Positions 6,504 through 43,296 of a stretch of DNA of 64,000 nt are shown piece by piece. Under the pieces are notes generated by a model. It made no database searches. It saw only the letters and a program-made list of their open reading frames with translations, and was not told the origin of the DNA. Origin of the DNA: Candidatus Ratteibacteria bacterium (GTDB lineage: Bacteria; Ratteibacteria; UBA8468; B48-G9; DTJG01); assembly GCA_041656495.1 (NCBI GenBank), contig JBBADJ010000001.1:79382-143381 (forward strand), given 5' to 3'. Made by a program: the position numbers and the translations under genes. The first letter of the stretch is position 1; every line of letters begins with the position of its first letter.

Positions 6504-6552
6504 CTGCATATTCCCAAATCTTTCCAAAAAAAGAAAACGGTCCTCTTAAACC

Positions 6553-6580: not shown

Positions 6581-6710
6581 TTCTTCTTGGAATACGAGCC
6601 ATTTACAAAACTCTTTTCAATAAATCTTTAGGATTTGTTCAATCCTTCTCATCTCTCTTGATAGAGTAGGGTGAAGAGACCGAAAAGAACCACAACGTAC
6701 GGAGGAAGGC

Positions 6711-7208
6711 ATGATACTCAAAGGAAAAGCACATACCTTTGGAGATGATATCAATACTGATTACATTATATCCGGGAGATATAAATTTAAGACATTGGAT
6801 ATGAAGGAACTCTCTACGCACCTTATGGAAGATCTTGATCCTGATTTCTCAAAGAAAATCACGAAAGGAGATTTTCTTGTAGGAGGCGAAAACTTTGGAT
6901 GCGGTTCAAGCAGAGAACAGGCGGTCCTTGCTATAAAATTTGCCGATATCGGCGCGATCATCGCAAAAAGTTTTGCACGCATATTTTTTCGGAATGGAAT
7001 TAATGTCGGACTGGTTCTCATTGAAGCAGATACAGACGGAATCTCCAACAATGACCTACTACAAATCAATCTTCCTGAAGGAAAAATTGAAAATCTTACT
7101 ACAGGCACCACACACTCAATGAGACCTCTTCCAGATTTTTTGCTTTCCATTATTCAAGAAGGCGGAGTTGTGCAGTACCTTAAAAAATATAAGGACTTTA
7201 CTCTATGA
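6711..7208 (+). CDS. Aconitase-family small subunit (LeuD-like, archaeal-type short form)
   Basis: 165 aa; GENFGCGSSREQA motif; paralog of the leuD at 28875..29366. Confidence 0.75.
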   Translation: MILKGKAHTFGDDINTDYIISGRYKFKTLDMKELSTHLMEDLDPDFSKKITKGDFLVGGENFGCGSSREQAVLAIKFADIGAIIAKSFARIFFRNGINVGLVLIEADTDGISNNDLLQINLPEGKIENLTTGTTHSMRPLPDFLLSIIQEGGVVQYLKKYKDFTL

Positions 7209-8287: not shown

Positions 8288-9571
<1,284 letters not shown>

Positions 9572-9905: not shown

Positions 9906-12821
9906 ATGAAGCGATGGATTGGAATAATCCTTATTCTTTGGATCGCCTGTCTCTCGGTTGCCGCGGTATCTGCAGGTACAAAACCCATCCTTCTGATTAA
10001 AGACGGAAATTTTGCTCGGTATGATATTCCCCGCTTCATCAATAGAGTCCTTGCTCCCAACGGAATCGTATGGGTTGAAGTAACTACATTTACTCCGGAT
10101 GATTTTTCACAATACAGTGCGGTTATTCTCTTTTCTGGAGTAACGAAAGCGCTCTCACCAGAAGAGATTGAGAGTACCAAAAAGTATCTTGAATCAGGCG
10201 GACTTATATTGCATACCGGCGGAGGCCTCTTTTTACAGGGACTGAAACGAAACCTTAAACCCCATCCATGGGTTAAAGCCCTTAGCTGGCATTATCATTC
10301 CAAAACAAAGATTGTGGGAAAGTTTTTAGAACCCACCCATCCTTTTCTCAAGGGAGTGGATACCTCCCGTGAATATTCCTGGATGAGTGGATTTTATTCC
10401 ATTACTCCGGGAGAAGGAACCACTGCGATCATAGGAGACGGAACCTATGCTATTCTTGCTGATACACCTATGGAAAAGGGAGATCTTGTCTTTTTATGGG
10501 AAGGTCCTTTCCGTACCAGAGAAACAACTCCTGCAGAACGAGAGGCCTATGAAAAGATCCTTCTCAATATCATACAAAGTGTAGATCCGCTTACTAGAAA
10601 GGAAGATCTTGCCGCAAAATTCCGTTCCGCGGGATTATCGGAAGATAGCCTTCTTCTCTGGAAACGAGACTGGCAATACCAACCTCAAGAACGGGCTCTT
10701 TTTGTGCCTTCTTTTCCTGAGAGAGAAGAAATTCTTTCCGCTCTTTCTTTTGCAAGCGCAATGGATGAACGAGATACTCAGTTTTTCCTTTGTCAAACTG
10801 GAAAAACAACAAACCTTACTGTATCGGCCTCTCCCTTAAAACGGATAAGAGATAACCGAGAATATCCCGCGGCTCTCTCTCTCTTTGTGTCAGAGAAGCC
10901 TCCTGTTATTCCTTCCCTCATACCCAAAGAAGGAGAAGCTCTTCCGCAGAAACTTGGAGAATATAACCTCACTCCCATTACAAAACCGATCTCCCTTGTA
11001 GCGCCAGAACCGAGAATTATATGGGTTTCTCTCTCAACCAAGGGACTTGAACCCGGAGAATATCGCTCTTCTCTTACTCTTTCCACGGACAAACAAAGAA
11101 CTTCTCTTCCTATTTCTGTGAAAGTTTTTCCGGTAAGAATGCCGGTACAGAGGCCTGTAGAGCTTCGCTACTGGGGCGGAGGAATGCCTGCGAAAGAACC
11201 TTTTGTCTCAGAACTTGAACGTCAAGGATCTCCCCAACTTACTCTTTCCTATCCTATCCTTTCTAAAATCCTTGTAGGAGAAGAAAAAATTCCCCTTAGT
11301 GAAGCATTGAAAAAGAAGCCCTCACTCTTTGACCCTGACAATTTTCCCATTCTTGATTTTGAACCTGCCTATGGAGAAGCCATTAAACAAGGGCTTTCTC
11401 ATAACCTTACCTATATCTGGTTCAGAGATGTTCGGACCGGAAGTTTTATAGCGGCCGCAGGCACCGGCGAAAAAACGCTTCCAAAGGTTTCGCAATGGAG
11501 CGAAAAATTCCAAAAACTCTATACGCTCTATTATAAAGCGCTCTACACCTACTTCTCGGGAAAGGGATTTCGGGAGGTAGATCTACTATGGATGGACGAA
11601 CCCTCCAGCACAGCAATCAGAACCACCTATATTCCTAGAGCAAAACTCTTTGCGGAAGCAGGAATGGGCTCAGGGAATACATGGACTGCGGGCGGATTTA
11701 TGACTCCGGAAGAAATCAATACCTTTGCTCCTTATACAAGCGATTTTAGTATGTATACTATTATGCTTCCAAAATTCCTTCAATTTATGAAAGAAGGAGC
11801 ATTAACATTCCATCCACGAACCAAAATCGGCACTACCCGCGGAGGAACAGGGCTTGCATTGCGAAGACCTTATAATGCCGCGAGAACTCTTGGATGGACC
11901 ATTGCATACTATGGTCAACCGGTCTCTTTTCTTAGAACAGGACCTCTCTGGAAGGGATGGCTCTACTATGTGGATTTTGATCAAAAAGGGGCTCGTCCTG
12001 AAGGAATTGAAGGAGAGAGGTTGGTTGCCTATGGATCTGAAATGAAGAGCATTCTTTCCTCAAGCGATTGGGAGGGTGCGAGAGATGGCTGTGAAGATGC
12101 CTCTTTAGTACGGATGCTTGAATGGTATATGGAAAAGCTTGCTCCTTTGGCAGGAAAAAGAGCAAACCTTGCCACTACATTGGCAAAAATCGCCACCAAT
12201 AAAGAGAAGTGGTTCGGCAAGGATGGAAAGGGTTTCTTTCAGATTAAACCCTCCCAGTATCGGGTTAAAGAGCTTTCCTATGATTACGATACCCTTATTC
12301 CGCCTTCCAGTAGCGTGATTGAGGAACTCAAACAGAAAGTTCTTGAAGATCTCGCCTCGCTCGCACCTTATGCAACACTTCTTTCTCCATCGCTTACATG
12401 GCATGAGGTCTTGCTTGTAGAAAACGGAAAAAGCAATGCCAGTATTCTTATTCCGCAAAATGCAGATTCTACCATTGTCGCAGAAGCCTCTTCTTTAGCA
12501 AAAAAGATTGCCTCTCTCTCGGGATTTCTACCCAAGGTACTTCAAACCTCTTCTCTGCCTTCAGGAAAAGGACCCTTTATTATTGCGGGAACCACGGAAG
12601 ATCTTCTTGTTAAAAATAGTCCTGTAGAAGGCACGCATCCTATAAAACTCCCACCATTACAGCAAGGAGACTACAGAATCACAAAAGATGCGAAAGGAAC
12701 TATTCTTCTTATTAACGGCGCCGATACAGAAGGTGTTGCGACCGGAATAAAAAATTTCGGAAGATTTCTTAAGGCGGAAGGAGGCTGGATAGAACCTTCA
12801 CAAAGTACCTCGTCTAATTGA
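9906..12821 (+). CDS. Large secreted protein of unknown function (971 aa) with an N-terminal ThuA/class-I-glutamine-amidotransferase-like domain
   Basis: Signal peptide MKRWIGIILILWIACLSVAAVSA. The N-terminal region (ILLIKDG ... VILFSGV ... LESGGLILHTGGG) resembles ThuA / beta-galactosidase-trimerisation-like folds. The rest of the protein has no recognisable catalytic motifs. Confidence 0.6.
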   Translation: MKRWIGIILILWIACLSVAAVSAGTKPILLIKDGNFARYDIPRFINRVLAPNGIVWVEVTTFTPDDFSQYSAVILFSGVTKALSPEEIESTKKYLESGGLILHTGGGLFLQGLKRNLKPHPWVKALSWHYHSKTKIVGKFLEPTHPFLKGVDTSREYSWMSGFYSITPGEGTTAIIGDGTYAILADTPMEKGDLVFLWEGPFRTRETTPAEREAYEKILLNIIQSVDPLTRKEDLAAKFRSAGLSEDSLLLWKRDWQYQPQERALFVPSFPEREEILSALSFASAMDERDTQFFLCQTGKTTNLTVSASPLKRIRDNREYPAALSLFVSEKPPVIPSLIPKEGEALPQKLGEYNLTPITKPISLVAPEPRIIWVSLSTKGLEPGEYRSSLTLSTDKQRTSLPISVKVFPVRMPVQRPVELRYWGGGMPAKEPFVSELERQGSPQLTLSYPILSKILVGEEKIPLSEALKKKPSLFDPDNFPILDFEPAYGEAIKQGLSHNLTYIWFRDVRTGSFIAAAGTGEKTLPKVSQWSEKFQKLYTLYYKALYTYFSGKGFREVDLLWMDEPSSTAIRTTYIPRAKLFAEAGMGSGNTWTAGGFMTPEEINTFAPYTSDFSMYTIMLPKFLQFMKEGALTFHPRTKIGTTRGGTGLALRRPYNAARTLGWTIAYYGQPVSFLRTGPLWKGWLYYVDFDQKGARPEGIEGERLVAYGSEMKSILSSSDWEGARDGCEDASLVRMLEWYMEKLAPLAGKRANLATTLAKIATNKEKWFGKDGKGFFQIKPSQYRVKELSYDYDTLIPPSSSVIEELKQKVLEDLASLAPYATLLSPSLTWHEVLLVENGKSNASILIPQNADSTIVAEASSLAKKIASLSGFLPKVLQTSSLPSGKGPFIIAGTTEDLLVKNSPVEGTHPIKLPPLQQGDYRITKDAKGTILLINGADTEGVATGIKNFGRFLKAEGGWIEPSQSTSSN

Positions 12822-27825: not shown

Positions 27826-28902
27826 TTATCCCTGCGCAACAAAATCAGCGATAAGATCTCCCACTTCCGAAGTTCCCATCCCCATTCTACCTGCTTCAAG
27901 GCTCTTCACATACCCTTCACCCATTGCTTTGATAATGGCTTTTTCTATTAAAACAGCCGCATCTGTCTCTCCAAGAGTTTCAAGCATCATAGAAGCCGCA
28001 CCAATAGTTGCAACAGGACAAATTTTGTTCTGACCAGTATATTTTGGCGCGGAACCATGAATCGGTTCAAACATTGAAACTCCTTCAGGGTTAATGTTTC
28101 CTCCCGCCGCAATACCAAGACCGCCCTGAGTCATTGCCGCAAGATCTGTAATAATATCTCCGAACATATTGTTGGTTACAATCACATCAAACCATTCGGG
28201 ATTTTTTATCATCCACATACAGGTCGCATCCACAAAGGCATACTCAAGAGAAATTCCAGGATATTCGGAAAGAATGGAACGAGCCGTCCTTCTCCACAGA
28301 TCTCCGGCATAGGTTAAGACATTTGCCTTATCAACAATATGAAGGGTATTCTTCTTTTTTCTCTTCTGAACCATATCAAAGGCATATCGGATACATCGTT
28401 CAACGCCCTTGCGGGTATTTACATCCACTTGTGTGGCTATTTCGTCCGGAGTATCTTTTTTCACACATCCGCCGATACCAGAATAAGCGCCCTCGCTATT
28501 TTCTCGGACAACAAGATAATCAATCTCTTCAGGACCCTTATCTTTTACAGGAGTATAAACGCCCGGATAAAGTTTTACAGGTCTAAGATTGATATACTGA
28601 TCAAGAGAAAAACGGATCTTCAATAAAAGTTCTTTTTCAAGAATACCGGGAGCCACATCCGGATGTCCTACCGCACCAAGATAGATCGCATCAAGTTTTC
28701 GAAACTCATCAAGTGCAGAATCCGGCAAAACCTCTCCTGTTTTTAGATACCGTTCTCCGTTAAAATCATACGGCACAAGATTTAAAGAAAAACCTTTCTT
28801 TTCCGCGGCCGCAGTAAGAACTTTCACTCCTTCCCGTATGATTTCCGGACCCACGCCGTCTCCGGGAATAACACCTATCGTATATACCTTTCCTGTGTCC
28901 AT
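27826..28902 (-). CDS. leuB: 3-isopropylmalate dehydrogenase (tartrate/isopropylmalate dehydrogenase family)
   Basis: IGVIPGDGVGPEI; NMFGDIITDLAA; last gene of the leuA-C-D-B operon. Confidence 0.85.
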   Translation of the reverse strand: MDTGKVYTIGVIPGDGVGPEIIREGVKVLTAAAEKKGFSLNLVPYDFNGERYLKTGEVLPDSALDEFRKLDAIYLGAVGHPDVAPGILEKELLLKIRFSLDQYINLRPVKLYPGVYTPVKDKGPEEIDYLVVRENSEGAYSGIGGCVKKDTPDEIATQVDVNTRKGVERCIRYAFDMVQKRKKKNTLHIVDKANVLTYAGDLWRRTARSILSEYPGISLEYAFVDATCMWMIKNPEWFDVIVTNNMFGDIITDLAAMTQGGLGIAAGGNINPEGVSMFEPIHGSAPKYTGQNKICPVATIGAASMMLETLGETDAAVLIEKAIIKAMGEGYVKSLEAGRMGMGTSEVGDLIADFVAQG

Positions 28903-29366
28903 TTCATCAAACCTCCATATTCAATAAGTTCCCGGAGAAAATCCGGATATCGAGTGAATGTATACTCTTTATTCAAAGTAAGGTTACGGAGAATCCCAGT
29001 GGTCAGATCTATTTCAACAAGATCTTTTTCCCGTAACGCATCAACCTCTTCCAGTTCAACCAATGGCAGTCCGATATTAATTGAATTCCGTAGAAAAATC
29101 CTGGCGAAACTTTTTGCCACCACCACAGAAACTCCAAGTTCTCTTAATGCCACAGGCGCATGCTCTCTGCTAGAACCGCATCCGAAATTTTCTCCGGCAA
29201 CCACTATGTCGCCAGCAACAAATGCATCGGCAAATCCAGGACGAATCGTTTCCATACAATGGGCCGCAAGTTCTTTTCCATCAGTCGTATTCAAATACCT
29301 CGCGGCAATAATATCATCGGTATTAATATGATCACCAAACTTCCAGATTTTTCCCTTTACATTCAT
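28875..29366 (-). CDS. leuD: 3-isopropylmalate dehydratase small subunit (archaeal-type)
   Basis: GENFGCGSSREHA; 163 aa; 4-nt overlap with leuC. Confidence 0.85.
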   Translation of the reverse strand: MNVKGKIWKFGDHINTDDIIAARYLNTTDGKELAAHCMETIRPGFADAFVAGDIVVAGENFGCGSSREHAPVALRELGVSVVVAKSFARIFLRNSINIGLPLVELEEVDALREKDLVEIDLTTGILRNLTLNKEYTFTRYPDFLRELIEYGGLMKWTQERYIR

Positions 29367-30634
29367 TTCCCCACCTCTTCTGGATGAGCAATACTTCCTT
29401 TCACGGCAGATGCCGCCGCCACTTCAGGATTTGAAAGATAAACAAAACTCTCCGGTGAACCCATTCTTCCAATAAAATTTCTGTTTGTTGTCGCAAGCGC
29501 AGTCTCTCCTTTCCCAAGAATACCCATATGGCCGCCAAGACACGGACCACAGGTAGGAGTACTTACCACGCATCCCGCATCAATAAAGATATCCAACAAC
29601 CCCATTTCCAAAGATTGCCGATAAATCTTCTGCGTAGCGGGAATTACAATGGTACGAAGTTCTGGATGAACTTTTTTTCCTTTCATTACCATAGCGGCTT
29701 TTCTCAAATCGCTTAACCTTCCATTAGTACAGGAGCCAATCACCACTTGATCTATTTTCACCGAGGAAAACTCGCGTACATCTTTGGTATTGCTTGGAAG
29801 ATGGGGCGCCGCAACCTGGGGTCCTATCTTAGAAACATCAATATCAATAATCTGGTCATACTTACTTCCAGGATCGCTAAAAAGACCGGCGGGAATCTCG
29901 TTTCGTATATTAAGCTCTCCAGAAAAAAAGGCGCTGGTAATTTCATCGGGCGCAATAATACCATTTTTTGCTCCGGCCTCAATCGCCATATTGCACATCG
30001 TAAACCGATCGTCCATAGGAAGCGTAAGAATGGTTTCACCGGCAAATTCCATAGAACGGTATAAAGCACCGTCAACCCCTATTTTCCCTATTGTATAAAG
30101 AATAAGATCTTTACCGCCGGTCCATCTCTGAAGAGTTCCCCGATAATTAAAACGGATCGTGGAAGGAACCTTAAGCCAAACTTTTCCAGAAATCATCGCG
30201 GCGGCAACATCAGTGCTTCCCACTCCTGTAGAGAAGGCGGCAACCGCACCATAAGTACAGGTATGACTATCAGCTCCAATAATAAGAGCTCCCGGCAATG
30301 TAAGCCCTTCTTCGGGAAGAAGGGCGTGTTCAATACCAACTCTTCCCATTTCATAAAATCGTGTTCCATGTTTTTTAGAGAAGGTCCGAAGGGATTGAAC
30401 AAGTTCTGCGCTTCTAATATCTTTGCAGGGTGTAAAATGATCAGGAACAAGCACAATTTTCTCCGGATCAAATACCTTGGTCGCACCCGCTTTTTCAAAC
30501 TCTTCTATTGCAAGAGGGCCGGTAACATCGTTTGCCAACACTAAATCAAGATCCGCATAAAGAAATTCTCCCGGCACAACCTCTTTTTTATTCGCATGAG
30601 ATGCAAGAATCTTTTCAGTAATCGTCATACGCAT
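29363..30634 (-). CDS. leuC: 3-isopropylmalate dehydratase large subunit (archaeal-type, 423 aa)
   Basis: Aconitase-family cysteine ligand regions (GSCTNGR, PTCGPCLG). Confidence 0.9.
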   Translation of the reverse strand: MRMTITEKILASHANKKEVVPGEFLYADLDLVLANDVTGPLAIEEFEKAGATKVFDPEKIVLVPDHFTPCKDIRSAELVQSLRTFSKKHGTRFYEMGRVGIEHALLPEEGLTLPGALIIGADSHTCTYGAVAAFSTGVGSTDVAAAMISGKVWLKVPSTIRFNYRGTLQRWTGGKDLILYTIGKIGVDGALYRSMEFAGETILTLPMDDRFTMCNMAIEAGAKNGIIAPDEITSAFFSGELNIRNEIPAGLFSDPGSKYDQIIDIDVSKIGPQVAAPHLPSNTKDVREFSSVKIDQVVIGSCTNGRLSDLRKAAMVMKGKKVHPELRTIVIPATQKIYRQSLEMGLLDIFIDAGCVVSTPTCGPCLGGHMGILGKGETALATTNRNFIGRMGSPESFVYLSNPEVAAASAVKGSIAHPEEVGK

Positions 30635-30704
30635 ATCTCCCGCTTATCTTAAAAAGTTTTTCTGTATTTTCTTTGATCTCGCACAGAGTCATCTGCATCA
30701 AGAA

Positions 30705-32234
30705 TTATGTCGCACGTATATTCTTCTTTACAATATCCTTTTTTGCAAGATATTGATTTATCGCATTAAGATATCCTCTAGCGCTCGCTTCTATAATATC
30801 GGTACTTACCCCTCTTCCCGCAACAGGAATTCCCTTGATTTCAAGAAGAACAGAGACCTCTCCCTGCGCATCGGTACCCGGTGTAATGGCGCTGATCTTA
30901 TATTCGTTTAAGTGCGGAGAAAGCCCGGTAATTCTGTCTATCGCATTATATACCGCATCTACAGGTCCATCTCCCCGGGAGGCGTCTTCAAAAAAATCTT
31001 CTCCCTTTTTCAATCTCACGGTAGCAGTGGGAACTGTTGCGCTTCCAGAAAGAACATGAAAATAATCAAGCGCATAAATCGGTTCATACAGAACAGTTTC
31101 ATCCTCATAAATAAAGATAAGATCTGTATCAGAGATCTCTTTTTTCTTATCGGCAAGTTGTTTGAAACGGATAAAAACCTTTTCTAATGATTCGTCGTCC
31201 AAAGTAAAACCAAGTAGTTCCAGCCGGCTTTTCAAGGCATGCCGTCCAGAATGCTTACCCAGCACCAAACCGCTTCCAACTATTCCCACCATTTCAGGAT
31301 GCATTATCTCATAGGTTTCTCGGAACTTAAGAACTCCATCCTGGTGGATTCCGGACTCATGACGAAAAGCATTGTCTCCTACGATGGCTTTATTGGGTTG
31401 AACCAAAATTCCTGTCAAAGAAGAGACCAACCTGCTGGAACGATAAATCTCTTCTGTGTTGATTCCTGTCTCCAATCCATACCTTTTTTTTCTTACGATA
31501 AGGTTCATAACAATCTCTTCAAGAGAAGCGTTTCCCGCGCGCTCACCGATTCCATTCACTGTACATTCAACCTGACGAGCGCCATATTGAAGCGCTGCCA
31601 AAGAATTGGCAACACCCAAACCAAGGTCGTTATGGCAATGAACACTAATAATAATTCCAGGATCCAGTTTTTCGCGAACCGCTCCAATCAATGGTCCGAA
31701 TTCTTCGGGAATAGCATATCCTACTGTATCAGGGATATTAATCACTGTCGCTCCTTCTTCCGCGACCGCCATCGCAACTTCAATCAAAAAATCCGGTTCG
31801 GTTCTTGATGCGTCTTCCGGCGAAAATTCTATCTGGTCAATAAAACGTTTAGCAAATTTCACACTTTCGCAGGCAATTCTGACAATCTCGTTTTTCGCTT
31901 TTCCAAGTTTATGTTTCCTATGAATTTCAGAGGTTGCTAAAAAAAGATGTAACCGCGGTTTTCTAGCATGCTCCAGCGCCTTAAGCGCAACTTCAATATC
32001 TCCCTGACGGCACCGGGCAAGCGCGGAAGTTTCAGGACCTTCCACCTCTTTCCCGACAAGCCGTACTGCTTCGGCATCATCCTGAGAAGTAATGGGGAAA
32101 CCGGCTTCAATCACATCCACGCCTAACCGAGCAAGCTGAAAGGCAATCTTCAGTTTTTCAGTGCTTGAAAGACTAGCTCCCGGCGCCTGTTCCCCATCCC
32201 GTAATGTTGTATCAAATATATAGACTCGTTCCAT
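30705..32234 (-). CDS. leuA: 2-isopropylmalate synthase / (R)-citramalate synthase family (with a C-terminal LeuA-dimer regulatory domain)
   Basis: IFDTTLRDGEQAPG N-terminal DRE-TIM motif; HCHNDLGLGVANSLAA; 509 aa. Confidence 0.85.
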   Translation of the reverse strand: MERVYIFDTTLRDGEQAPGASLSSTEKLKIAFQLARLGVDVIEAGFPITSQDDAEAVRLVGKEVEGPETSALARCRQGDIEVALKALEHARKPRLHLFLATSEIHRKHKLGKAKNEIVRIACESVKFAKRFIDQIEFSPEDASRTEPDFLIEVAMAVAEEGATVINIPDTVGYAIPEEFGPLIGAVREKLDPGIIISVHCHNDLGLGVANSLAALQYGARQVECTVNGIGERAGNASLEEIVMNLIVRKKRYGLETGINTEEIYRSSRLVSSLTGILVQPNKAIVGDNAFRHESGIHQDGVLKFRETYEIMHPEMVGIVGSGLVLGKHSGRHALKSRLELLGFTLDDESLEKVFIRFKQLADKKKEISDTDLIFIYEDETVLYEPIYALDYFHVLSGSATVPTATVRLKKGEDFFEDASRGDGPVDAVYNAIDRITGLSPHLNEYKISAITPGTDAQGEVSVLLEIKGIPVAGRGVSTDIIEASARGYLNAINQYLAKKDIVKKNIRAT

Positions 32235-32410: not shown

Positions 32411-33115
32411 ATGAAAAAGAATCTATTGTTATTTAGAAGTATGGGAATTATTATAGCACTTTTTTTCTGTTGTGCGACAGGATGTGGGAAAAACAGCAAA
32501 ATCTCCGACGAAGAGAGACCTTTTGTGGAAGAGGCTATTCAATATGGAATAGAGACAAAAGGAATGACCTTTCTTCAGGTTACCAAACCATGGACCATTG
32601 ATCTTGGATACGATCAAACCAAAGGATCCGCAACCTATTGTTCTCCCTTTCTTCGTCTCGCACTTCTCGGAAAAAATGGAGCGGAAAAGAACCAAACCAT
32701 TCCAGAACAGGTCATCACAAAGATCCTCCGAGACAATAAAGGAACCCTTCATTTCTTTCTTAACCTCTATGGCGACGAACCTACCTATTCAAAAAGATTG
32801 GAATTCTTTCTGAAACATGGTGAAAGAACTCTTCTTCCTATAAAAAAAATCATTCCCAATTATAGCGAGTTTTCCCGGGACTATATGAATATTGTAAAAG
32901 GAGAACTCTATTTCTCCAACGAAGGTATCGGCGAGAACGATACTGTAACCTTGGTTGTTAAGATCAATCCCTCATCTGAAGATCAACACCATAGCCATGG
33001 GCATCACGACCATCACGATCATCATCATTCCCATTCTGCGCCTGATGAAACTCCGGTGGAACCAGAACCCATTAGATTTACAGAATTTACCTTTGATCTA
33101 TCACAATACCGTTAA
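32411..33115 (+). CDS. Lipoprotein with a C-terminal histidine-rich tract
   Basis: Signal peptide with lipobox ATGC, and the C-terminal tract SEDQHHSHGHHDHHDHHHSHSAPDE. Confidence 0.6.
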   Translation: MKKNLLLFRSMGIIIALFFCCATGCGKNSKISDEERPFVEEAIQYGIETKGMTFLQVTKPWTIDLGYDQTKGSATYCSPFLRLALLGKNGAEKNQTIPEQVITKILRDNKGTLHFFLNLYGDEPTYSKRLEFFLKHGERTLLPIKKIIPNYSEFSRDYMNIVKGELYFSNEGIGENDTVTLVVKINPSSEDQHHSHGHHDHHDHHHSHSAPDETPVEPEPIRFTEFTFDLSQYR

Positions 33116-33169: not shown

Positions 33170-33805
33170 ATGATCTCTTCTTGTGAATATCGTAAAAAAT
33201 CGTTTGAAGAGTATTTTAAACTTCTTTCTCAAAAAAGCCCCTGTCCAGGAGGCGGAAGCGCCTCTCTTTGCGCGCTCGCACTCGCCAATGCACTTCTCTG
33301 CATGGTGGCGAACTACAGCATAGATAGTTCACGCGTCTCTCCAGACCATCGGCGCCAACTTCGCACCATTCTTGACAATGCACATTCTCTCGGAGAAAAA
33401 ATACTTGATGCCGTGGAAAAAGATAGCGAACTCTTCATCGCTATCCAAAATTCTTCCCGCAAAGCTAAAAAAGATCCTTTATGTCAATCACTTTTCCATG
33501 ACGCCTTGAAAAACTCTATTCTCTTCCATCTTACGGCACTAGCATGGGGAATAAAAATCATTACATGGAATCATACACTTCTTACGCAAGGAAACCCTAA
33601 TCTTGCCAGCGATGCGCGCGTCTCCGCATCTCTGGCGTCAGGATCGTTCCAAGGCCTGAAAACTCTTATTCATGTTAACCTTGAGGAGATACCTGACGAC
33701 GATCCTTTCCATATCCGGTTTCTCACTATAACCAACCATCTTTCCGATCTTTTTCTCCAGCGCGACGCGTTCTTTCAGGAGATGAAAGAGAAAAACAGGA
33801 GATAA
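33170..33805 (+). CDS. fchA: Methenyltetrahydrofolate cyclohydrolase (FchA / cyclodeaminase-cyclohydrolase FTCD_C family)
   Basis: SPCPGGGSASLCALALANAL signature of the FTCD_C domain; 211 aa. Confidence 0.7.
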   Translation: MISSCEYRKKSFEEYFKLLSQKSPCPGGGSASLCALALANALLCMVANYSIDSSRVSPDHRRQLRTILDNAHSLGEKILDAVEKDSELFIAIQNSSRKAKKDPLCQSLFHDALKNSILFHLTALAWGIKIITWNHTLLTQGNPNLASDARVSASLASGSFQGLKTLIHVNLEEIPDDDPFHIRFLTITNHLSDLFLQRDAFFQEMKEKNRR

Positions 33806-33809: not shown

Positions 33810-34670
33810 ATGCCTGCCACAATTCTTTCTGGAAAAGAGATTGCCGCAACCATCAAAAATAGAGTAACAGAGCATCTTCACGCCTTCAAAGAACAGGGTA
33901 TAACACCCAATATTGCCGCGATTCAGGTTGGCGACAACCCCTCCTCTTCAATCTACCTCAAAGCACAGCGGAACCACTGTCTTTCCGTGGGAATTTCTCA
34001 TCAGCTTCAACAGATTCCCGCCGACGTATCAACAGAAACCCTGGCCGCACTTATTCAACGTTTAAATGAGAATCCTGCAATACAAGGGATTATTCTTCAG
34101 ATGCCTCTTCCTGCCCACCTTGACGCGAGCCTGTTTCAATCAATGATTTCACCTGTCAAAGATATTGAGGGAGTAAATCCGGAAAATATTGGAAAGATCA
34201 TCTACGGAAAAGCTCGGCTCGCCCCATGCACCGCACTTGCCGCGACCCGACTCATAGAAGAAACCGGTATTGATCCATACGGTAAAGAGATGGTTATCGT
34301 CGGTCATAGCGAAATTGTGGGAAAACCTTTAGCACTTCTATGGCTTAACAAATTTGCCACTCTATCGGTCTGCCATATTGCCACTTCACAAAGCGGACAT
34401 CTACAATCCCATGTAGAAAGAGCGGAAATATTGGTTGTCGCCGTTGGAAAAGCACACCTTATTCCCGGAAGCTGGATCCGGGAAGGAGCAATAGTCATAG
34501 ATGTAGGAATCAACAGAGTACATGGTACAATTATAGGAGACGTAGAATATGAAACCGCAAAAGAACGGGCATCGTGGATTACTCCGGTACCGGGTGGAGT
34601 AGGGCCTGTAACCACCGCCATGCTCCTTCATAATATCATTGAGGCAACTAAATGGCAGATGTCATTGTAA
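33810..34670 (+). CDS. folD: Bifunctional 5,10-methylene-THF dehydrogenase / 5,10-methenyl-THF cyclohydrolase
   Basis: ILSGKEIA N-terminus; YLKAQ and PVPGGVGPVT motifs. Confidence 0.9.
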   Translation: MPATILSGKEIAATIKNRVTEHLHAFKEQGITPNIAAIQVGDNPSSSIYLKAQRNHCLSVGISHQLQQIPADVSTETLAALIQRLNENPAIQGIILQMPLPAHLDASLFQSMISPVKDIEGVNPENIGKIIYGKARLAPCTALAATRLIEETGIDPYGKEMVIVGHSEIVGKPLALLWLNKFATLSVCHIATSQSGHLQSHVERAEILVVAVGKAHLIPGSWIREGAIVIDVGINRVHGTIIGDVEYETAKERASWITPVPGGVGPVTTAMLLHNIIEATKWQMSL

Positions 34671-36670
34671 AAGACCTAACGAAGTTTCGTCTAAAACAAA
34701 AAGAAGAACTCGTTGAAACTCTTTCTCATATCTCATCAATATCCCTTCTCTGGTGTGAAAAATGTTTTACCGCAGAAGAGCTTTCCGATAAAGATATCGC
34801 GGCATTCAAAGAGATTTCCGATCTTTCCCATCTCTCTATTTCTCAGGATATCCGGATACCTTTTCTCTGCAACCGTATAAAAACCAGTTCATTACTGCAA
34901 GAAACATTATCCCCTGAAACAAAGAGAATTGCTGTTGCATCCTGCGGTATAGGCATTCAAACCATCTCTTCTCTCTTTCCGGATCTTCCTATTATCGCTT
35001 TGACGGATTCCATTCCACAATCTCTTAATGCTACCTCTCTTACAGCATTTCACGGTATTACTCTCGCAAAATTAATGTGTGCCGGATGCGGCAACTGTGT
35101 CCTTACAAAAACCGCGGGAATATGTCCGGTAACCGCCTGCGCAAAGAGTCTTTTGCATGGTCCTTGCGGAGGCGCTAAAAACGGGATGTGCGAAGTATCT
35201 CCGGAACGGGAATGTGCATGGGAAAAAATTTTTTCTCGGTTGGAAAAACAGAAAAAAAAATGGGAAGATTCCTCTACGCTCCATAACTTTGCCGCTTTTT
35301 CTTTTTCGCAACATCTCGTTTATCGTAAAGAAAACGCCTTGCGCCATGAAAAACCTTTTTATGGAGGAGTTCATCCACCCGACGAGAAAAAAAGCACTGA
35401 ATCATCTCCATTACGCCATTTTTCTCCTCCGGAAAAGGTTATCCTCTTTCTCTCACAACACGCGGGAATGCCTGCAAAACCCCTTGTACAAAGAGGAGAT
35501 TCTGTTTGTATCGGAGAAAAAATTGCCGATGCGGACGGATTGATTTCTCTTCCTCTGCATACAGGCATCAGTGGAACCGTACGAGATATTTCCACTGAGT
35601 GGCATCCTATTCTGCTTCAGCCAATGCCTGCGATTATTATTGAAAACAATGGAAAAAACCTCTTTTCGGACAATTACACGAGATTTCCTAATTGGAAAGA
35701 TACAGACCCTGACATACTCTTAGACCATATCCGTGAAACTGGTATTGCAGGACTCGGTGGAGCGATGTTTCCCACTAACGTAAAACTTTCAGTAAAAAAA
35801 GCTCGCATTCTTATCATTAACGGATGTGAATGCGAACCCTTTCTTACCGGCGACACACGCCTGATGATAGAACGTTCTTCAGAACTTATGGAAGGCTGTG
35901 CCATCGCCGCTTATCTTCTCGGCGTCAAAGAAACAGTAGTCGCCATGGAAGAAAATTCTCAGGAAGCATTTTTATCCTGTTCAACCGCGGCACAGAATTT
36001 TTCTGAAATACGGATTGAACAATTCCCCACCGCCTATCCTCAGGGTGCGGAAAAAATGCTTGTACAAGCAGTAACCGATGAAAAAGTTCCTAAAGGAAAG
36101 ATTCCCCCGGATATAGGTATTGTAATACTCAACGCGGGAACTGTGATCGCCTTGCGTAACGCGATAATAGAAGGAAAACCGCTTATTGAAAGAACCTTGA
36201 CTGTGTCTGGACCTTTCTTCAGAGAAAAAGGGAACTTCATCGTAACAATCGGCACTCCACTAAACCATATTTTCCACGAGACAAAAACCGATCCTTCCGA
36301 CATAGGAAAGGAATGGATCCTTAAAATGGGTGGACCCATGATGGGAACTATTGTTCCCCATACCCGTACCGCTGTCATCAAAGGAACCACTGGCCTGATA
36401 TCTCAGCCTTTTCCCGCGGTGAAAGCAAGTGAAACGCGTGATTGTATCCGATGCGGTCGCTGTGTGGACGTCTGTCCCATGAAACTTTTGCCGCTTGATT
36501 ACGTCGCGCACGCAAAACGAGAAGAATGGAAGGCTTGTAAAGAAAAAGATCTTCTTTCCTGTATTGAATGTGGATGTTGCAACTATATATGCGCATCAAA
36601 AATTGATATTCTTTCACATATAAAAAAGGCAAAACATCATGCTTATTACGCATCTGAAACCAGAGAATGA
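34652..36670 (+). CDS. Fusion protein: an N-terminal MetV-like domain (methylene-THF reductase C-terminal-type zinc-ribbon domain) fused to an RnfC/NqrA-like flavin/NADH-binding module carrying two [4Fe-4S] ferredoxin motifs
   Basis: The N-terminus has SCGIGIQ and CGNCVLTKTAGICPVTACAKSLLHGPCGGAKNGMCEV. The C-terminus has GIAGLGGAMFPTNVK (as in RnfC) and the CIRCGRCVDVCP and CIECGCCNYICA ferredoxin motifs. Confidence 0.7.
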   Translation: MADVIVKDLTKFRLKQKEELVETLSHISSISLLWCEKCFTAEELSDKDIAAFKEISDLSHLSISQDIRIPFLCNRIKTSSLLQETLSPETKRIAVASCGIGIQTISSLFPDLPIIALTDSIPQSLNATSLTAFHGITLAKLMCAGCGNCVLTKTAGICPVTACAKSLLHGPCGGAKNGMCEVSPERECAWEKIFSRLEKQKKKWEDSSTLHNFAAFSFSQHLVYRKENALRHEKPFYGGVHPPDEKKSTESSPLRHFSPPEKVILFLSQHAGMPAKPLVQRGDSVCIGEKIADADGLISLPLHTGISGTVRDISTEWHPILLQPMPAIIIENNGKNLFSDNYTRFPNWKDTDPDILLDHIRETGIAGLGGAMFPTNVKLSVKKARILIINGCECEPFLTGDTRLMIERSSELMEGCAIAAYLLGVKETVVAMEENSQEAFLSCSTAAQNFSEIRIEQFPTAYPQGAEKMLVQAVTDEKVPKGKIPPDIGIVILNAGTVIALRNAIIEGKPLIERTLTVSGPFFREKGNFIVTIGTPLNHIFHETKTDPSDIGKEWILKMGGPMMGTIVPHTRTAVIKGTTGLISQPFPAVKASETRDCIRCGRCVDVCPMKLLPLDYVAHAKREEWKACKEKDLLSCIECGCCNYICASKIDILSHIKKAKHHAYYASETRE

Positions 36671-37289
36671 GCTGGTGCCGATACTTTCCCGAAAACCCCT
36701 TGTTGTATGCTGTTTCGGGTGCGCCGAGCTATTTTTTCCAGAAGAAGAAATTCTCTCTTTTCTTTCCCGGTACCCTGACTCTTATTCTGGCCTCATCCGG
36801 TGCGACTATCTCTGCAATAGAGAATTCTGTAAAGAATATCTTTCTCAAGAAAGAATCCACACTCCTTCCACGGTACTGATTTTTTCATGCGGGGTAGGGA
36901 TTCAAAGCGCCGCGGAACATCTGGAATCCATCCCTGTATTCGCAGGGTGCGACACCTTAATGGTAAATGGTTTTCAGGGAATAAGTATCACGGAAAACCA
37001 ATGCCATCAATGCGGAGAATGCCGGCTTAACGAAACCGGAGGGATATGTCCAATCACCGCCTGCGCAAAAGGTCTTTTAAACGGACCCTGCGGAGGCGCA
37101 AAAAACGGAAAATGCGAGGTGGACCCTGCCATGGAATGTGGATGGGAAAAAATATGGTGTAGATGGAAAGAGCAGGGGAAGATTAATCTCTCTCCAACTT
37201 CTATCGCAATCCGAGATTATGAAAAACTAAGCACGGGAAGAACCGGATCGTTTTCCAGCCGCCAGATCAACGCGGTCCCCAAAGATTGA
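36639..37289 (+). CDS. metV: MetV-like protein (MTHFR small subunit, zinc-ribbon type)
   Basis: SCGVGIQ; CHQCGECRLNETGGICPITACAKGLLNGPCGGAKNGKCEV; paralogous to the N-terminal domain of the preceding gene. Confidence 0.7.
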   Translation: MLITHLKPENELVPILSRKPLVVCCFGCAELFFPEEEILSFLSRYPDSYSGLIRCDYLCNREFCKEYLSQERIHTPSTVLIFSCGVGIQSAAEHLESIPVFAGCDTLMVNGFQGISITENQCHQCGECRLNETGGICPITACAKGLLNGPCGGAKNGKCEVDPAMECGWEKIWCRWKEQGKINLSPTSIAIRDYEKLSTGRTGSFSSRQINAVPKD

Positions 37290-37338: not shown

Positions 37339-38211
37339 ATGCCTTTCAAAGAAAAACTTCAACAAAAAAAATTTGTGGTAACTTCGGAAGTAGGGCCCCC
37401 GAAAGGTGTTGCGATTGATCCGTATCTCAATGAAGCAGAAGAACTCAAAGACAAGGTAGATGCCTTCAATGTAACCGATCTTCAAAGTTCTGTTATGCGT
37501 TTGGGATCGTTGGCAGTATCTCACCTACTCTATAAGAGAGGTCTTGAACCAATCTTTCAAATCACCTGCCGCGACAGAAACCGACTGGCGCTTCAATCAG
37601 ACCTTTTAAGCGCTTGGGTTCTCGGAATCAGAAATGTATTGGTCCTTACCGGAGATCATCCGGTACTCGGAGACCATCCAGACGCAAAACCTGTCTTTGA
37701 TCTTGATTCTGTAAGCCTTCTTTCCGTTCTTTCGGGATTAATGGAAGGAACCGATATGAAAGGAAACAGCCTTGAAGGCACTCCTGATTTTTTTGCGGGC
37801 GCGGTTGTAAATCCCGGATCAGACCCTATAGAACCCCAACTCTATAAAATGGAGGCGAAATTGGCCGCGGGAGCCCGTTTTTTTCAGACTCAAGCAATAT
37901 ACGATCTTGATATTTTTGAACGTTTTATGAAAAAAGCAGAGAGCTTTCATGTTCCTATACTTGGTGGAATCGTACTTCTTAAATCTGCTGGTATGGCAAA
38001 ATTTATGAATGAAAAGGTTGCGGGAATTTCAGTACCGAACCATTATATACAAAAGATGGCACAAACAAAAAAAGAAGAACGACCGGGCGCAAGCATTGAG
38101 ATAGCCACAGAACTTATCAAAGGAATGAAATCTCTATGCGCAGGCATTCATATTATGCCGCTTGGTTGGGAACAATATGTTCCGGAACTACTGCGTCAAA
38201 GCGGAATATAA
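37339..38211 (+). CDS. metF: 5,10-methylenetetrahydrofolate reductase (acetogen/anaerobe-type MetF)
   Basis: TIM-barrel MTHFR family with FAD-binding context (VTDLQSSVMRLGS, VLTGDHP, FFQTQAIYDLD); 290 aa. Confidence 0.85.
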   Translation: MPFKEKLQQKKFVVTSEVGPPKGVAIDPYLNEAEELKDKVDAFNVTDLQSSVMRLGSLAVSHLLYKRGLEPIFQITCRDRNRLALQSDLLSAWVLGIRNVLVLTGDHPVLGDHPDAKPVFDLDSVSLLSVLSGLMEGTDMKGNSLEGTPDFFAGAVVNPGSDPIEPQLYKMEAKLAAGARFFQTQAIYDLDIFERFMKKAESFHVPILGGIVLLKSAGMAKFMNEKVAGISVPNHYIQKMAQTKKEERPGASIEIATELIKGMKSLCAGIHIMPLGWEQYVPELLRQSGI

Positions 38212-38241: not shown

Positions 38242-39936
38242 ATGGAGAACGATCTTACTATTGCGCAAAAAGCGCCACAGAAGGATATCCGCACCATTGC
38301 CGCGAATGCGGGAATTCCAGAGACATTTCTTGAACTCTACCATACCACAAAAGCAAAGGTATCTCTTGATATTCTTCCCACACTTCAAGAACGTCCAATA
38401 GGAAAATATATTGATGTTACCGCTATTACGCCTACACCTCTCGGAGAAGGAAAGACCGTTACAACCATAGGATTATCGCAGGCGATCGCCCGTTTAGGAC
38501 ATTCGGTATTCACCTGTATCCGTCAACCCTCTCTTGGACCGGTTTTTGGCATTAAAGGAGGTGCGGCAGGAGGAGGGTACTCTCAAGTAATTCCCATGGA
38601 AGATTTTAATCTTCACCTTACCGGCGATGTACATGCGGTCGGTCTTGCCCATAACCTTCTTGCGGCATTCATTGAGAACTCTCTCGCAAAAAAGAATCCT
38701 CTCAACCTCAACCCGCAAAAGATTACCTGGCCTCGGGTAATTGATGTAAGCGACAGAGCATTGCGAAACATTATTACAGGTTTAGGAGGAAAAGAAAACG
38801 GAATACCTCGTGAAACCCGTTTTGATATTACAGTTGCCTCGGAAGTAATGGCGATTCTTGCGCTTACCTCTGATATTTCCGATCTTCGCGACCGGCTTGG
38901 CCGTATTATTGTGGGAACTACCTATAATGGAGATCCAGTTACTGCGGAATCTCTTCATGTCGCGGGCGCAATGACAGTTCTCCTTAAAGATGCTATTAAA
39001 CCAACCCTTATGCAAACCCTTGAACATACCCCTGTTTTTGTTCATACAGGACCATTTGCCAATATCGCGCATGGAAACAGCTCTATCATCGCGGATCAAA
39101 TAGCGCTTCGCCTAGCAAAGTATACAGTTACAGAGAGCGGATTCGGCGCAGATTGCGGATTTGAAAAGTTTATTGATATCAAATGCCGATACAGTGGGTT
39201 GCGTCCCGACTGCGCTGTTATCGTCTGTTCGGTCCGCGCGCTGAAAATGCATAGCGGGCAATTCCGTATTATCCCTGGAAAAAGCCTATCAAAAAAGATT
39301 CTTGCGGAAAACCTTGATGCTATTGCGAAGGGAGCTGAAAACCTCGTAAAACATATAGAAAACGTACAATTATTCGGAATCCCCGCGGTGGTTGCAATCA
39401 ATCGATTTTCCACAGATACCGAGTCTGAACTAAACCTTATAAAAGAAATTTCAAAGAATGCGGGAGCAAAATATGTGGCAATAAGCAATGTATGGGAAAA
39501 AGGCGGTAATGGCGGCATTGAACTCGCCGAGGCAGTCATTCATGCCTGTGAAGAGGAAAACCATTTCCAATTTCTCTATCCTCAAACTGCCACTCTTTTG
39601 GAAAAAATTGAATCCATCGCAAAAAAGATCTATGGCGCCGAGAAGGTTCTTCTCAGCAAAACCGCCAAACAAAAATTACGAACCTTCTCCCAATGGGGTT
39701 TTGAATCTCTTCCTATCTGTATGGCAAAAACACATCTTTCTCTTTCTCACGATCCCTCCCTTAAGGGAAGACCTCGGGATTTTACCCTTCCCATTGACGA
39801 TATACGGATCTCTGCCGGCGCAGGATTCATATATCCGCTTTGCGGAGAAATTCGCACGATGCCAGGACTTCCCACAGAACCTGCGGGAGAAAAGATAGAT
39901 ATAGATTCTCACGGAAAGATCACCGGTCTTTTTTAA
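38242..39936 (+). CDS. fhs: Formate--tetrahydrofolate ligase
   Basis: ITPTPLGEGKTVTTIGL P-loop; 564 aa; FTHFS family throughout. Confidence 0.95.
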   Translation: MENDLTIAQKAPQKDIRTIAANAGIPETFLELYHTTKAKVSLDILPTLQERPIGKYIDVTAITPTPLGEGKTVTTIGLSQAIARLGHSVFTCIRQPSLGPVFGIKGGAAGGGYSQVIPMEDFNLHLTGDVHAVGLAHNLLAAFIENSLAKKNPLNLNPQKITWPRVIDVSDRALRNIITGLGGKENGIPRETRFDITVASEVMAILALTSDISDLRDRLGRIIVGTTYNGDPVTAESLHVAGAMTVLLKDAIKPTLMQTLEHTPVFVHTGPFANIAHGNSSIIADQIALRLAKYTVTESGFGADCGFEKFIDIKCRYSGLRPDCAVIVCSVRALKMHSGQFRIIPGKSLSKKILAENLDAIAKGAENLVKHIENVQLFGIPAVVAINRFSTDTESELNLIKEISKNAGAKYVAISNVWEKGGNGGIELAEAVIHACEEENHFQFLYPQTATLLEKIESIAKKIYGAEKVLLSKTAKQKLRTFSQWGFESLPICMAKTHLSLSHDPSLKGRPRDFTLPIDDIRISAGAGFIYPLCGEIRTMPGLPTEPAGEKIDIDSHGKITGLF

Positions 39937-42060: not shown

Positions 42061-43296
42061 ATGTATATCGCGGACTTTCACATTCATTCAAAGTATAGCA
42101 GGGCTACCAGCCCCTCAATGGATATAGAGAAGTGTGCCCAATGGAGCCGTATAAAGGGTATTGATCTTCTTGGTACCGGAGATATTACCCACCCGTTATG
42201 GAGAAAAAAATTACAAAAAGCTCTTCTTCCAACTGATCGTAAGGGCATCTATTCATACCGCAATACCGACTTTATCCTTACAGGAGAAGTTAGTAGTATC
42301 TATCATAAAAACGGAGCATTACGAAAAATTCATATTATACTTTTCTTCTCTTCCTTTGAAAGAGCTGAAAATTTCAGCGCGGCTGTCGCAAAGTACGGAG
42401 ATCTTATGAGCGACGGAAGGCCAATCCTTTCGCTTGATGCAAAAAAAGTCGCAACAATGGTACGACAAAACGATCCAGAAGGATTTATCGTTCCCGCCCA
42501 TATCTGGACTCCTCATTTTTCTCTCTTTGGAGCCCATTCAGGGTTTGACCGTATTGAAGATTGTTTTGAAGAAGAGACTGCCTTTATTCCCGCCCTTGAA
42601 ACAGGTCTTAGTAGCGATCCTCCTATGAACCGACGACTTTCAAGTCTTGACAAGTTTACCCTTATCTCTAACTCTGACGCCCATTCTCCGCAAAAATTGG
42701 CAAGAGAAGCCAATATCTTTTCTTCTTCCTTCTCAATCGGAGAATTATACAGGATCCTTAAAGACCAAGATACGCGGCGTTTTCTTTCTACTGTGGAATA
42801 TTTCCCGGAAGAAGGCAAGTACCATCTTGACGGACATAGAAACTGCAATGCAAGAAGTACTCCAGAAGAAACAATCGCCAATCGCTATCTTTGTCCTGTC
42901 TGCAAAAAAAGAGTAACAGTCGGCGTTATGCACCGTATAACCCTTCTCGCGGACCGACCCCCAAACGCCATTTCTTCCATGCCGTTTCATCATATAGTCC
43001 CTCTTGACCAAATTCTTTCCTCTGTCCTTGAAAAAAATCCCGCTTCACAAACAGTGCAGAACCATTATAACCACGCTATTGAAACGCTCGGGCCTGAATT
43101 AACCATTCTTCTTACCACTCCCCCAGAGAAGATCTTCTCTGCTCTTTCAGAGCCCATTGCGAGCGCTATTGTCAAGATGAGAGAGGGGAAAATACTGGTT
43201 GAACCGGGATACGATGGAAAGTTTGGAACCATTACTATCAGCCCTACTCACGACGAGGCACAAAACGAAACTACTCAGCAACAGAGTCTTTTCTGA
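42061..43296 (+). CDS. PHP-domain phosphoesterase with a C-terminal zinc ribbon (COG1379, endonuclease Q-like)
   Basis: N-terminal DFHIHSKYS PHP motif; C-terminal GHRNCN ... YLCPVCKK zinc-binding cluster. The roughly 411 aa size matches archaeal EndoQ. Confidence 0.55.
   Translation: MYIADFHIHSKYSRATSPSMDIEKCAQWSRIKGIDLLGTGDITHPLWRKKLQKALLPTDRKGIYSYRNTDFILTGEVSSIYHKNGALRKIHIILFFSSFERAENFSAAVAKYGDLMSDGRPILSLDAKKVATMVRQNDPEGFIVPAHIWTPHFSLFGAHSGFDRIEDCFEEETAFIPALETGLSSDPPMNRRLSSLDKFTLISNSDAHSPQKLAREANIFSSSFSIGELYRILKDQDTRRFLSTVEYFPEEGKYHLDGHRNCNARSTPEETIANRYLCPVCKKRVTVGVMHRITLLADRPPNAISSMPFHHIVPLDQILSSVLEKNPASQTVQNHYNHAIETLGPELTILLTTPPEKIFSALSEPIASAIVKMREGKILVEPGYDGKFGTITISPTHDEAQNETTQQQSLF

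Follow-up and report, generated by a model that had tools for sequence, protein, structure and literature searches.

The window analysed here is a stretch of 64,000 nucleotides from an uncultured Candidatus Ratteibacteria bacterium. The following genes and domains are found on its forward strand:

33170..33805, + strand, fchA-like methenyl-THF cyclohydrolase of the FTCD_C family (Pfam PF04961, 1.7e-27)
33810..34670, + strand, folD, bifunctional methylene-THF dehydrogenase/cyclohydrolase (Pfam PF00763, 6.4e-33; PF02882, 1e-58)
34652..36670, + strand, putative rnfC2, MetV-like/RnfC fusion of 672 aa with an ATG start, predicted NADH-oxidising subunit of a type III MTHFR
34652..35356, + strand, MetV-like N-terminal domain of RnfC2, residues 1-235 (PF12225, 7.6e-27)
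35357..36670, + strand, RnfC module of RnfC2, comprising a barrel-sandwich domain, a Nuo51-type FMN/NADH domain with GLGGAMFP and two four-cysteine [4Fe-4S] motifs (Pfam, NCBIfam and PDB matches)
36639..37289, + strand, putative metV, predicted small Fe-S/Zn subunit of MTHFR, 216 aa with an ATG start (PF12225, 1.1e-28)
37339..38211, + strand, putative metF, predicted catalytic flavoprotein subunit of MTHFR, 290 aa (PF02219, 2.2e-37, full length)
38242..39936, + strand, fhs, formate-tetrahydrofolate ligase (PF01268, 6.3e-256)

The genes rnfC2, metV and metF share one strand. The folD and rnfC2 genes overlap by 19 nt, rnfC2 and metV by 32 nt (36639-36670), and a gap of 49 nt separates metV from metF. 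The two overlaps and the tight spacing suggest translational coupling of the subunits. Judged by its gene content, fchA-folD-rnfC2-metV-metF-fhs is a complete methyl-branch cluster, predicted to lead from formate to methyl-THF. A scan of the ~46 larger ORFs of the window detected no CODH/ACS genes of the carbonyl branch, no families of Rnf membrane subunits (rnfD/G/E/A/B) and no hdr/mvhD. A His-rich upstream ORF is rejected as a conserved member of the cluster, as it lacks a homologue in the 80 related loci.

Both ORFs to which the first-pass annotation had drawn attention (34652..36670 and 36639..37289) and their overlap are confirmed, and Pfam/HMM mapping bears out the domain assignments. 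In the fusion ORF, PF12225 (MTHFR C-terminal/DUF5981) is found at residues 125-203 (7.6e-27), followed by RnfC_N at 236-335 (1.4e-27), Complex1_51K at 360-501 (1.2e-42) and Fer4_7 at 598-650. The C-terminal module had been described as RnfC/NqrA-like. Its RnfC part is borne out by NCBIfam, with 456 bits for TIGR01945 rnfC over residues 236-663, while the NqrA part is rejected with only 31 bits for nqrA. A PDB sequence search matches residues 235-663 end to end with solved RnfC chains (E 4e-92 to 6e-87), the top match being A. woodii RnfC (9eri_C, 4e-92 over residues 235-663). The FMN/NADH domain and the two [4Fe-4S] motifs lie within the aligned region. The same search gives no match for the N-domain and no relevant match for MetV, the best one being unrelated at E 0.5. 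No solved structure of any MetV-type protein is thus detectable by sequence in the PDB.

The second ORF is MetV-like as proposed (PF12225, 1.1e-28), and it is 40% identical to the N-domain of the fusion over 194 aa (E 3e-40). The motifs quoted for the two proteins, SCGIGIQ/SCGVGIQ, the Cys-rich C-terminal block, GLGGAMFPT and two four-cysteine ferredoxin motifs, are present and invariant in homologues. In the alignment this invariance covers C598/601/604/608, C637/640/643/647 and GLGGAMFP of the RnfC module. Twelve invariant cysteines are located in the N-domain (C35, C38, C73, C98, C143, C146, C149, C158, C163, C172, C180 and C188), and conservation of these 12 positions reaches 100% in each of the two MetV-type groups, across 64 fused N-domains as well as 64 standalone MetVs. 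They are predicted to form two [4Fe-4S] clusters and a Zn site in each MetV-type module. Together, the cysteine sets are consistent with some six [4Fe-4S] clusters: each MetV-type module would have two, and the ferredoxin domain of RnfC another two.

A neighbour-joining tree separates the MetV-type sequences cleanly, with the 64 fused N-domains in one clade and the 64 standalone MetVs in the other. The fused clade takes in the window, Acetobacterium, Blautia, Omnitrophota and others, and the N-domain and MetV of the window fall on the expected sides. Mean identity is 65% among N-domains, 66% among MetVs and 40% between the two groups. This bipartition rules out an independent lineage-specific fusion and makes one ancient duplication and fusion the probable origin of the MetV-like N-domain. 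The tree and the identities also show that RnfC2 of the window is orthologous to RnfC2 of the retrieved Acetobacterium and Blautia loci. Along 661 aa, RnfC2 of the window and that of Acetobacterium paludosum DSM 8237 share 40% identity (E 2e-165) and are collinear, the N-domain included; the direct Acetobacterium comparison covers A. paludosum and A. tundrae, A. woodii RnfC2 being absent from the 80 loci retrieved.

The gene order is conserved as well. A fused RnfC2 followed by metV and then metF is found in about 60-65 of the best 80 species genomes, and the metF of the window is 50-79% identical to the metF located 3' of metV in most related loci. In Acetobacterium the genes run fhs-folD-rnfC2-metV-metF. 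The folD gene lies directly upstream of rnfC2 in the Omnitrophota/Ratteibacteria relatives (loci L001-L003 and L006) and in three Acetobacterium loci (L021, L032 and L035). In the same Omnitrophota/Ratteibacteria loci, fchA occupies the same position as in the window, and fhs belongs to the same cluster in one Omnitrophota locus (L002) and two Acetobacterium loci (L021 and L035).

The domain architecture, orthology, synteny and conserved cofactor-binding motifs described above identify the locus, with high probability, as a type III (3S) MTHFR of the composition RnfC2-MetV-MetF inside a complete methyl-branch cluster. The fusion ORF would be its RnfC2 subunit. The first-pass annotation had taken the arrangement to be undescribed, and this is wrong. 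All known RnfC2 proteins join a MetV-like Fe-S domain at the N-terminus to an RnfC module at the C-terminus, and the A. woodii RnfC2 is described with a MetV-like N-terminal extension of ~220 aa and with metV and metF as the next genes (Poehlein et al., Oppinger et al., Yi et al.; PMC3315566, PMC8760232, PMC8515935). This architecture was published in 2012 (PMC3315566) and its biochemistry in 2015 (Bertsch, as cited in PMC8760232). A MetV-RnfC fusion with a second MetV is the normal, already published layout, so that the claim of novelty fails. The discovery value is small, since textbook accounts of the NADH-dependent type III MTHFR already show the flagged arrangement.

As reported in PMC8760232, citing Bertsch 2015, the A. 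woodii complex is a soluble, NADH-dependent and non-bifurcating trimer with RnfC2:MetV:MetF at 1:1:1. The enzyme contains 23.5 Fe and has an NADH:methylene-THF activity of 248 U/mg; six [4Fe-4S] clusters and 2 FMN are both predicted and measured. Ferredoxin is not reduced by the enzyme, alone or with methylene-THF and NADH, according to the same source. By analogy with the purified A. woodii enzyme, NADH would deliver its electrons to the FMN in the Nuo51-like domain of RnfC2. From there they would travel along the Fe-S clusters of this subunit, of which two [4Fe-4S] are predicted in the ferredoxin-like motifs of the C-terminal part and two in the MetV-like N-domain, and would go on via the two MetV clusters to the flavin of MetF. 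MetF would then reduce methylene-THF to methyl-THF. The proposed route contains no reduction of ferredoxin and therefore would involve no bifurcation. With no more than ~37-43% identity to the characterised clade, the specificity for NADH as electron donor is extrapolated. The cofactor content, the cluster order and the 1:1:1 stoichiometry would likewise carry over by analogy.

Several other readings of the locus were weighed. In the literature searched, type III MTHFR appears as a speciality of few Bacillota acetogens (Acetobacterium, Blautia). It could instead be a widespread enzyme that has been inherited vertically in candidate phyla without cultured members (Ratteibacteria, Omnitrophota, Aerophobota, Elusimicrobiota, Dehalococcoidales) and is hidden there under the name 'RsxC'. 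In these lineages it might belong to a C1 pathway other than acetogenesis or, following a speculation of Poehlein et al., bind to Rnf so that methylene-THF reduction is tied directly to ion translocation. The occurrence in these groups is a matter of observation. We found the type III architecture in Ratteibacteria, Omnitrophota, Aerophobetes, Elusimicrobia and Dehalococcoidales, and the same Pfam architecture is seen in proteins of Acetobacterium, Blautia, Sporobacter, Dehalococcoidales and Elusimicrobia. A different physiology or coupling is speculative, and the reading as a whole is unlikely. A literature search on Ratteibacteria and the Wood-Ljungdahl pathway gave nothing related, and RnfC2 in Omnitrophota, Elusimicrobia, Aerophobetes or Dehalococcoidia was not found among the literature matches listed. 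The occurrence of type III MTHFR with a full methyl-branch cluster in these candidate phyla, for which the literature searched holds no discussion, would be a minor possible novelty.

We consider it quite unlikely that RnfC2 takes the place of RnfC on the membrane Rnf complex and wires methylene-THF reduction directly to the ion-translocating Rnf, rather than acting as a soluble NADH dehydrogenase module. Such a model was drawn for A. woodii by Poehlein et al. 2012 (Fig. 4B; PMC3315566) and is repeated in PMC8760232 and PMC8515935, and the RnfC module is indeed complete in length, with solved RnfC structures matching it at E 4e-92. However, PMC8760232 reports that the A. woodii enzyme purifies in soluble form, as a 1:1:1 trimer whose NADH:methylene-THF activity is high. 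The intact FMN/NADH motif and the lack of rnfD/G/E/A/B among the ~46 larger ORFs scanned in the window also argue against docking.

The first-pass annotation had further suggested a different stoichiometry or bifurcation wiring. Bifurcation at the methylene-THF step was once proposed on thermodynamic grounds (PMC3315566), and several Fe-S clusters and two flavins would be available to an enzyme that uses its tandem MetV-type domains to pass electrons from NADH to both methylene-THF and ferredoxin. The architecture of the window protein is, however, no different from that of the A. woodii-type enzyme. The characterised orthologue from A. woodii, with the same two MetV-type modules, is 1:1:1, NADH-dependent and non-bifurcating and does not reduce ferredoxin, as reported in PMC8760232, so the arrangement gives no hint of an unusual stoichiometry or wiring. 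Electron bifurcation or another stoichiometry is thus very improbable.

Public annotation names the fusion protein 'electron transport complex subunit RsxC', and database relatives carry the same name. The name arises because the protein passes the cutoff of the RsxC equivalog HMM (NCBIfam NF003454, 416.6 bits vs cutoff 345). As a statement that the ORF encodes a true RnfC/RsxC subunit of an Rnf/Rsx complex, it has a negligible probability. The solved RnfC chains are 435-496 aa long and their matches start at query residue 235-236, whereas the window protein carries a MetV-like N-domain of 235 aa ahead of them. Its flanks are folD and metV-metF, not rnfDGEAB, and it is orthologous to Acetobacterium RnfC2. 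Loci with a plain RnfC (L066 and L068-L080) have neither the N-domain nor metVF. As annotation pipelines name RnfC2 'RsxC', the inference of Rnf complexes from candidate-phyla genomes can be misled.

The fusion is also a real gene. The gene recurs in identical form, with its 672 aa and the 32-nt overlap, in independently assembled contigs, eight in all, with JGI metagenome 3300015214 and the Logan assembly of SRR11702764 as independent sources. The best 120 database relatives have 657-691 aa, 96-100% query coverage and all carry PF12225 and the RnfC domains. Collinear homologues of ~670 aa form more than 120 protein clusters. The alignment is unbroken across the MetV-like/RnfC junction, and the C-terminus of rnfC2 and the N-terminus of MetV align end to end with homologues. 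MLITxLK is the MetV start in 60/60 related loci with a readable rnfC2-metV junction, and relatives from Omnitrophota, Aerophobetes and Dehalococcoidales show rnfC2/metV overlaps of 20-26 nt. That genes were merged or split by an assembly or frameshift artefact, for which nothing speaks save the a priori chance of one in a metagenome-assembled genome, has next to no probability in view of the unchanged gene structure in assemblies made independently from different samples, the collinear homologues, the continuous junction and the conserved MetV start and overlap pattern.

The type III MTHFR of the window can be compared with four known systems. The type IV (6S) enzyme MetFV-HdrABC-MvhD of Moorella thermoacetica and Sporomusa ovata shares the MetF/MetV core and has an extra NADH-oxidising module, which is HdrA-based and proposed to bifurcate (PMC8760232, PMC8515935). 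The genes adjoining metVF here are rnfC2 and fhs, not hdrABC/mvhD, and a type IV enzyme is rejected. The type II (2S) MetVF of Clostridium ljungdahlii, C. formicoaceticum, Eubacterium callanderi and Thermoanaerobacter kivui consists of homologous MetV and MetF. Its MetV has two predicted [4Fe-4S] clusters and Zn, and the enzymes lack RnfC2, take no electrons from NADH, and work with reduced ferredoxin in vitro (PMC8760232, PMC8515935). The presence of rnfC2 directly upstream of metV, and overlapping it, rules out MetVF alone. RnfC of the Rnf complex has no MetV-like N-domain and is encoded in rnfCDGEAB operons, while the window gene lies among folate-pathway genes.

The closest likeness is to the type III system of A. 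woodii (Awo_c09290-09310; Poehlein 2012, Bertsch 2015), a member of the Bacillota, whereas the host here belongs to Candidatus Ratteibacteria. The fhs gene lies downstream of metF here but at the head of the cluster in A. woodii, and rnfC2 and metV overlap by 32 nt here but are separated by a gap of ~1 nt there. The SLBB domain of the window RnfC2 stays below the Pfam threshold, unlike that of the Acetobacterium-type comparison protein. Otherwise, the window cluster mirrors the Wood-Ljungdahl methyl-branch cluster II of A. woodii, which contains fchA (PMC3315566). The architecture of RnfC2 is the same, with a MetV-like N-domain of ~220 aa and an RnfC module, and so is the order rnfC2-metV-metF, set among fchA, folD and fhs. 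The identity between N-domain and MetV, ~40% here, is close to the 41% reported for A. woodii (PMC8515935), and the Cys and FMN motifs of type III are all kept in the window proteins.

Six closely spaced genes are found on the + strand of the window between 33170 and 39936:
33170-33805, +, fchA-like cyclohydrolase (Pfam FTCD_C, 1.7e-27)
33810-34670, +, folD (Pfam THF_DHG_CYH and THF_DHG_CYH_C)
34652-36670, +, rnfC2, 672 aa (PF12225 and RnfC domains)
36639-37289, +, metV, 216 aa (PF12225, 1.1e-28)
37339-38211, +, metF (PF02219, 2.2e-37)
38242-39936, +, fhs (PF01268, 6.3e-256)
Directly upstream of fchA is a 234-aa ORF (32411-33115, +) whose N-terminus is lipoprotein-like and which includes a His-rich tract (HHSHGHHDHHDHHHSHS). 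It is also present in independent assemblies, shows no Pfam family and is without homologues among the 80 related loci. Its product may bind metal.

The 672-aa RnfC2 protein contains PF12225 (MTHFR C-terminal/DUF5981; residues 125-203, 7.6e-27), RnfC_N (236-335), a Nuo51-type FMN domain (360-501, 1.2e-42) and a 2x[4Fe-4S] ferredoxin domain (598-650), as identified by Pfam. Residues 236-663 match NCBIfam TIGR01945 (rnfC) with 456 bits, and the N-terminal 235 residues (the N-domain) share 40% identity with the standalone MetV (E 3e-40). The first-pass annotation had described a MetV-like domain joined to an RnfC-like module, followed by a second MetV ORF with a 32-nt overlap. ORF calls, Pfam and NCBIfam recover all of these, so each of its sequence-level statements is correct.

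The MetV-RnfC fusion is genuine. An assembly error is contradicted by 8 independently assembled contigs (JGI metagenome 3300015214, Logan SRR11702764), on which the gene structure and the 32-nt overlap are reproduced exactly. The exact protein is deposited as 'MAG: electron transport complex subunit RsxC [Candidatus Ratteibacteria bacterium]'. Each of its 120 best relatives is 657-691 aa long and carries PF12225 and the RnfC domains (query coverage 96-100%, identity 40-46%), and an alignment of 13 sequences shows no break at the MetV-like/RnfC junction. The MetV start MLITxLK is kept in 60/60 related loci with a readable junction. The overlap between the rnfC2 stop and the metV start is 32 nt in the window and 20-26 nt in relatives from Omnitrophota, Aerophobetes and Dehalococcoidales (loci L002, L003, L004 and L013), whereas nearly all loci from Firmicutes leave about 1 nt between the two genes; the coupling geometry differs between clades in this way.

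A homologue scan with one genome per GTDB species gave more than 600 matches, of which the best 80 were examined. About 65 of these 80 are full-length fused proteins (query residues ~6-662). Their hosts include Blautia, Lachnospiraceae, Oscillospiraceae, Marvinbryantia and Sporobacter termitidis DSM 10068, Acetobacterium paludosum DSM 8237 and A. tundrae DSM 9173, and members of Omnitrophota, Aerophobetes, Dehalococcoidales and Elusimicrobia. In most of the best 80 loci, tblastn with the window proteins finds the order fused rnfC2, metV, metF. Since A. woodii itself is outside the best 80, its two congeners were used for direct comparison. The window RnfC2 is collinear with the A. paludosum protein, N-terminal domain included (40% identity over 661 aa, E 2e-165), and the Acetobacterium, Blautia, Sporobacter, Dehalococcoidales and Elusimicrobia proteins have the same Pfam architecture. 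When the N-domains of 64 fused proteins are placed with 64 standalone MetVs in a neighbour-joining tree, the two groups separate cleanly, with a mean identity of 65% among N-domains, 66% among MetVs and 40% between groups. This bipartition, together with the identities, points to a single duplication and fusion before these lineages diverged. The gene in the window is an orthologue of the Acetobacterium/Blautia RnfC2 and not a new fusion.

Two contigs labelled 'Prevotella sp.' (L008) and 'Coriobacteriaceae bacterium' (L059) carry rnfC2-metV-metF clusters whose length, spacing and degree of identity with the window are those of the Blautia/Lachnospiraceae loci; these host labels are probably binning contamination. 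The Lachnospiraceae MAG locus L027 has a second, type II-like metV-metF pair lacking rnfC2 (967-2528; its products are 37% and 44% identical to those of the window), 2.5 kb upstream of its complete type III cluster (5001-8469).

By homology, electrons would pass from NADH via RnfC2 and MetV to MetF, the cluster order being likewise a proposal. NADH would be oxidised by FMN in the Nuo51-like domain of RnfC2, whose GLGGAMFP motif is invariant in the 13-sequence alignment. The RnfC2 clusters would carry the electrons onward (C598/601/604/608 and C637/640/643/647 are invariant) and hand them to MetV, from which the MetF flavin would receive them and reduce methylene-THF. Twelve cysteines are invariant in the N-domain, and the same 12 are found in MetV, with 100% conservation in both groups (64 + 64). 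This number fits a putative assignment of two [4Fe-4S] clusters (8 Cys) and one tetra-Cys Zn site to each MetV-type module, which agrees with papers that describe MetV as containing Fe-S clusters and zinc (PMC8760232, PMC8515935). A PDB sequence search with the N-domain and MetV found no solved structure for any MetV-type protein. The standalone MetV has an extra cysteine (C104, 'GCDT'; 36639-37289), present in 98% of the 64 MetVs versus 6% of the 64 fused N-domains; the window N-domain (34652-35356) reads 'LTDS' here. The A. paludosum N-domain appears to retain this cysteine, because its 'AGCDTI' stands opposite 'LTDS' in the pairwise alignment. C104 may be a marker of the MetV side that faces MetF.

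The remainder of the 64-kb window is housekeeping: DnaK, V/A-type ATPase subunits, purM, purA, ilvBNC, recA, alaS, leuABCD genes, asd, guaA, glycosyltransferases, feoB and grpE. No genes for Rnf membrane subunits, CODH/ACS or Hdr/MvhD are seen among the larger window ORFs scanned. The V/A-type ATP synthase genes at 3366-5379 (-), which encode subunit D and an ATP-synt_ab protein with the V/A C-terminal domain, bear on energy metabolism in this Ratteibacteria genome. Two isopropylmalate-pathway-like sets are present:
6711-8287, +, Aconitase_C small subunit and Iso_dh
27826-32234, -, leuA-, leuC-, leuD- and leuB-like genes (Pfam support for leuA only; others read from translations)
One of them may serve another 2-oxoacid elongation, e.g. 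citramalate or homocitrate. Three ORFs on the + strand show no Pfam family at E<=1e-6, namely 9906-12821 (971 aa), 1311-2681 (456 aa) and 42061-43296 (411 aa); the last, as read from its sequence, starts with a PHP-like 'DFHIHSKYSRA' motif.

The window RnfC2 scores 416.6 bits against the RsxC equivalog NF003454 (NCBIfam; cutoff 345), and in public records the RnfC2 proteins of type III MTHFR (the database match P0001 and others) bear the name 'electron transport complex subunit RsxC'. The misannotation looks systematic and could lead to Rnf being overpredicted in candidate phyla. Only this label and the distribution of type III MTHFR among candidate phyla are mildly new; the searchable literature does not discuss the enzyme in Ratteibacteria, Omnitrophota or other candidate phyla.

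The first-pass annotation was right about the domains and wrong about their novelty. As it states, RnfC2 and MetV are separate subunits in known complexes, but it misses that RnfC2 itself is a MetV-RnfC fusion, an arrangement already in print (Poehlein et al., PMC3315566; Oppinger et al., PMC8760232; Yi et al. 2021, PMC8515935). The N-domain/MetV identity of 41% reported by Yi et al. is essentially equal to the 40% in the window. The Acetobacterium loci among the best 80 have the context fhs-folD-rnfC2-metV-metF. As summarised by Oppinger et al. from Bertsch et al. 2015, the A. woodii complex has RnfC2:MetV:MetF of 1:1:1, 2 FMN and 23.5 Fe, with six [4Fe-4S] clusters predicted; it shows an NADH:methylene-THF activity of 248 U/mg, which ferredoxin does not stimulate, and no ferredoxin reduction. 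The suggested change in stoichiometry or bifurcation wiring is therefore not implied by this layout. As judged from sequence, the locus is an ordinary orthologue of this known, biochemically characterised enzyme complex.
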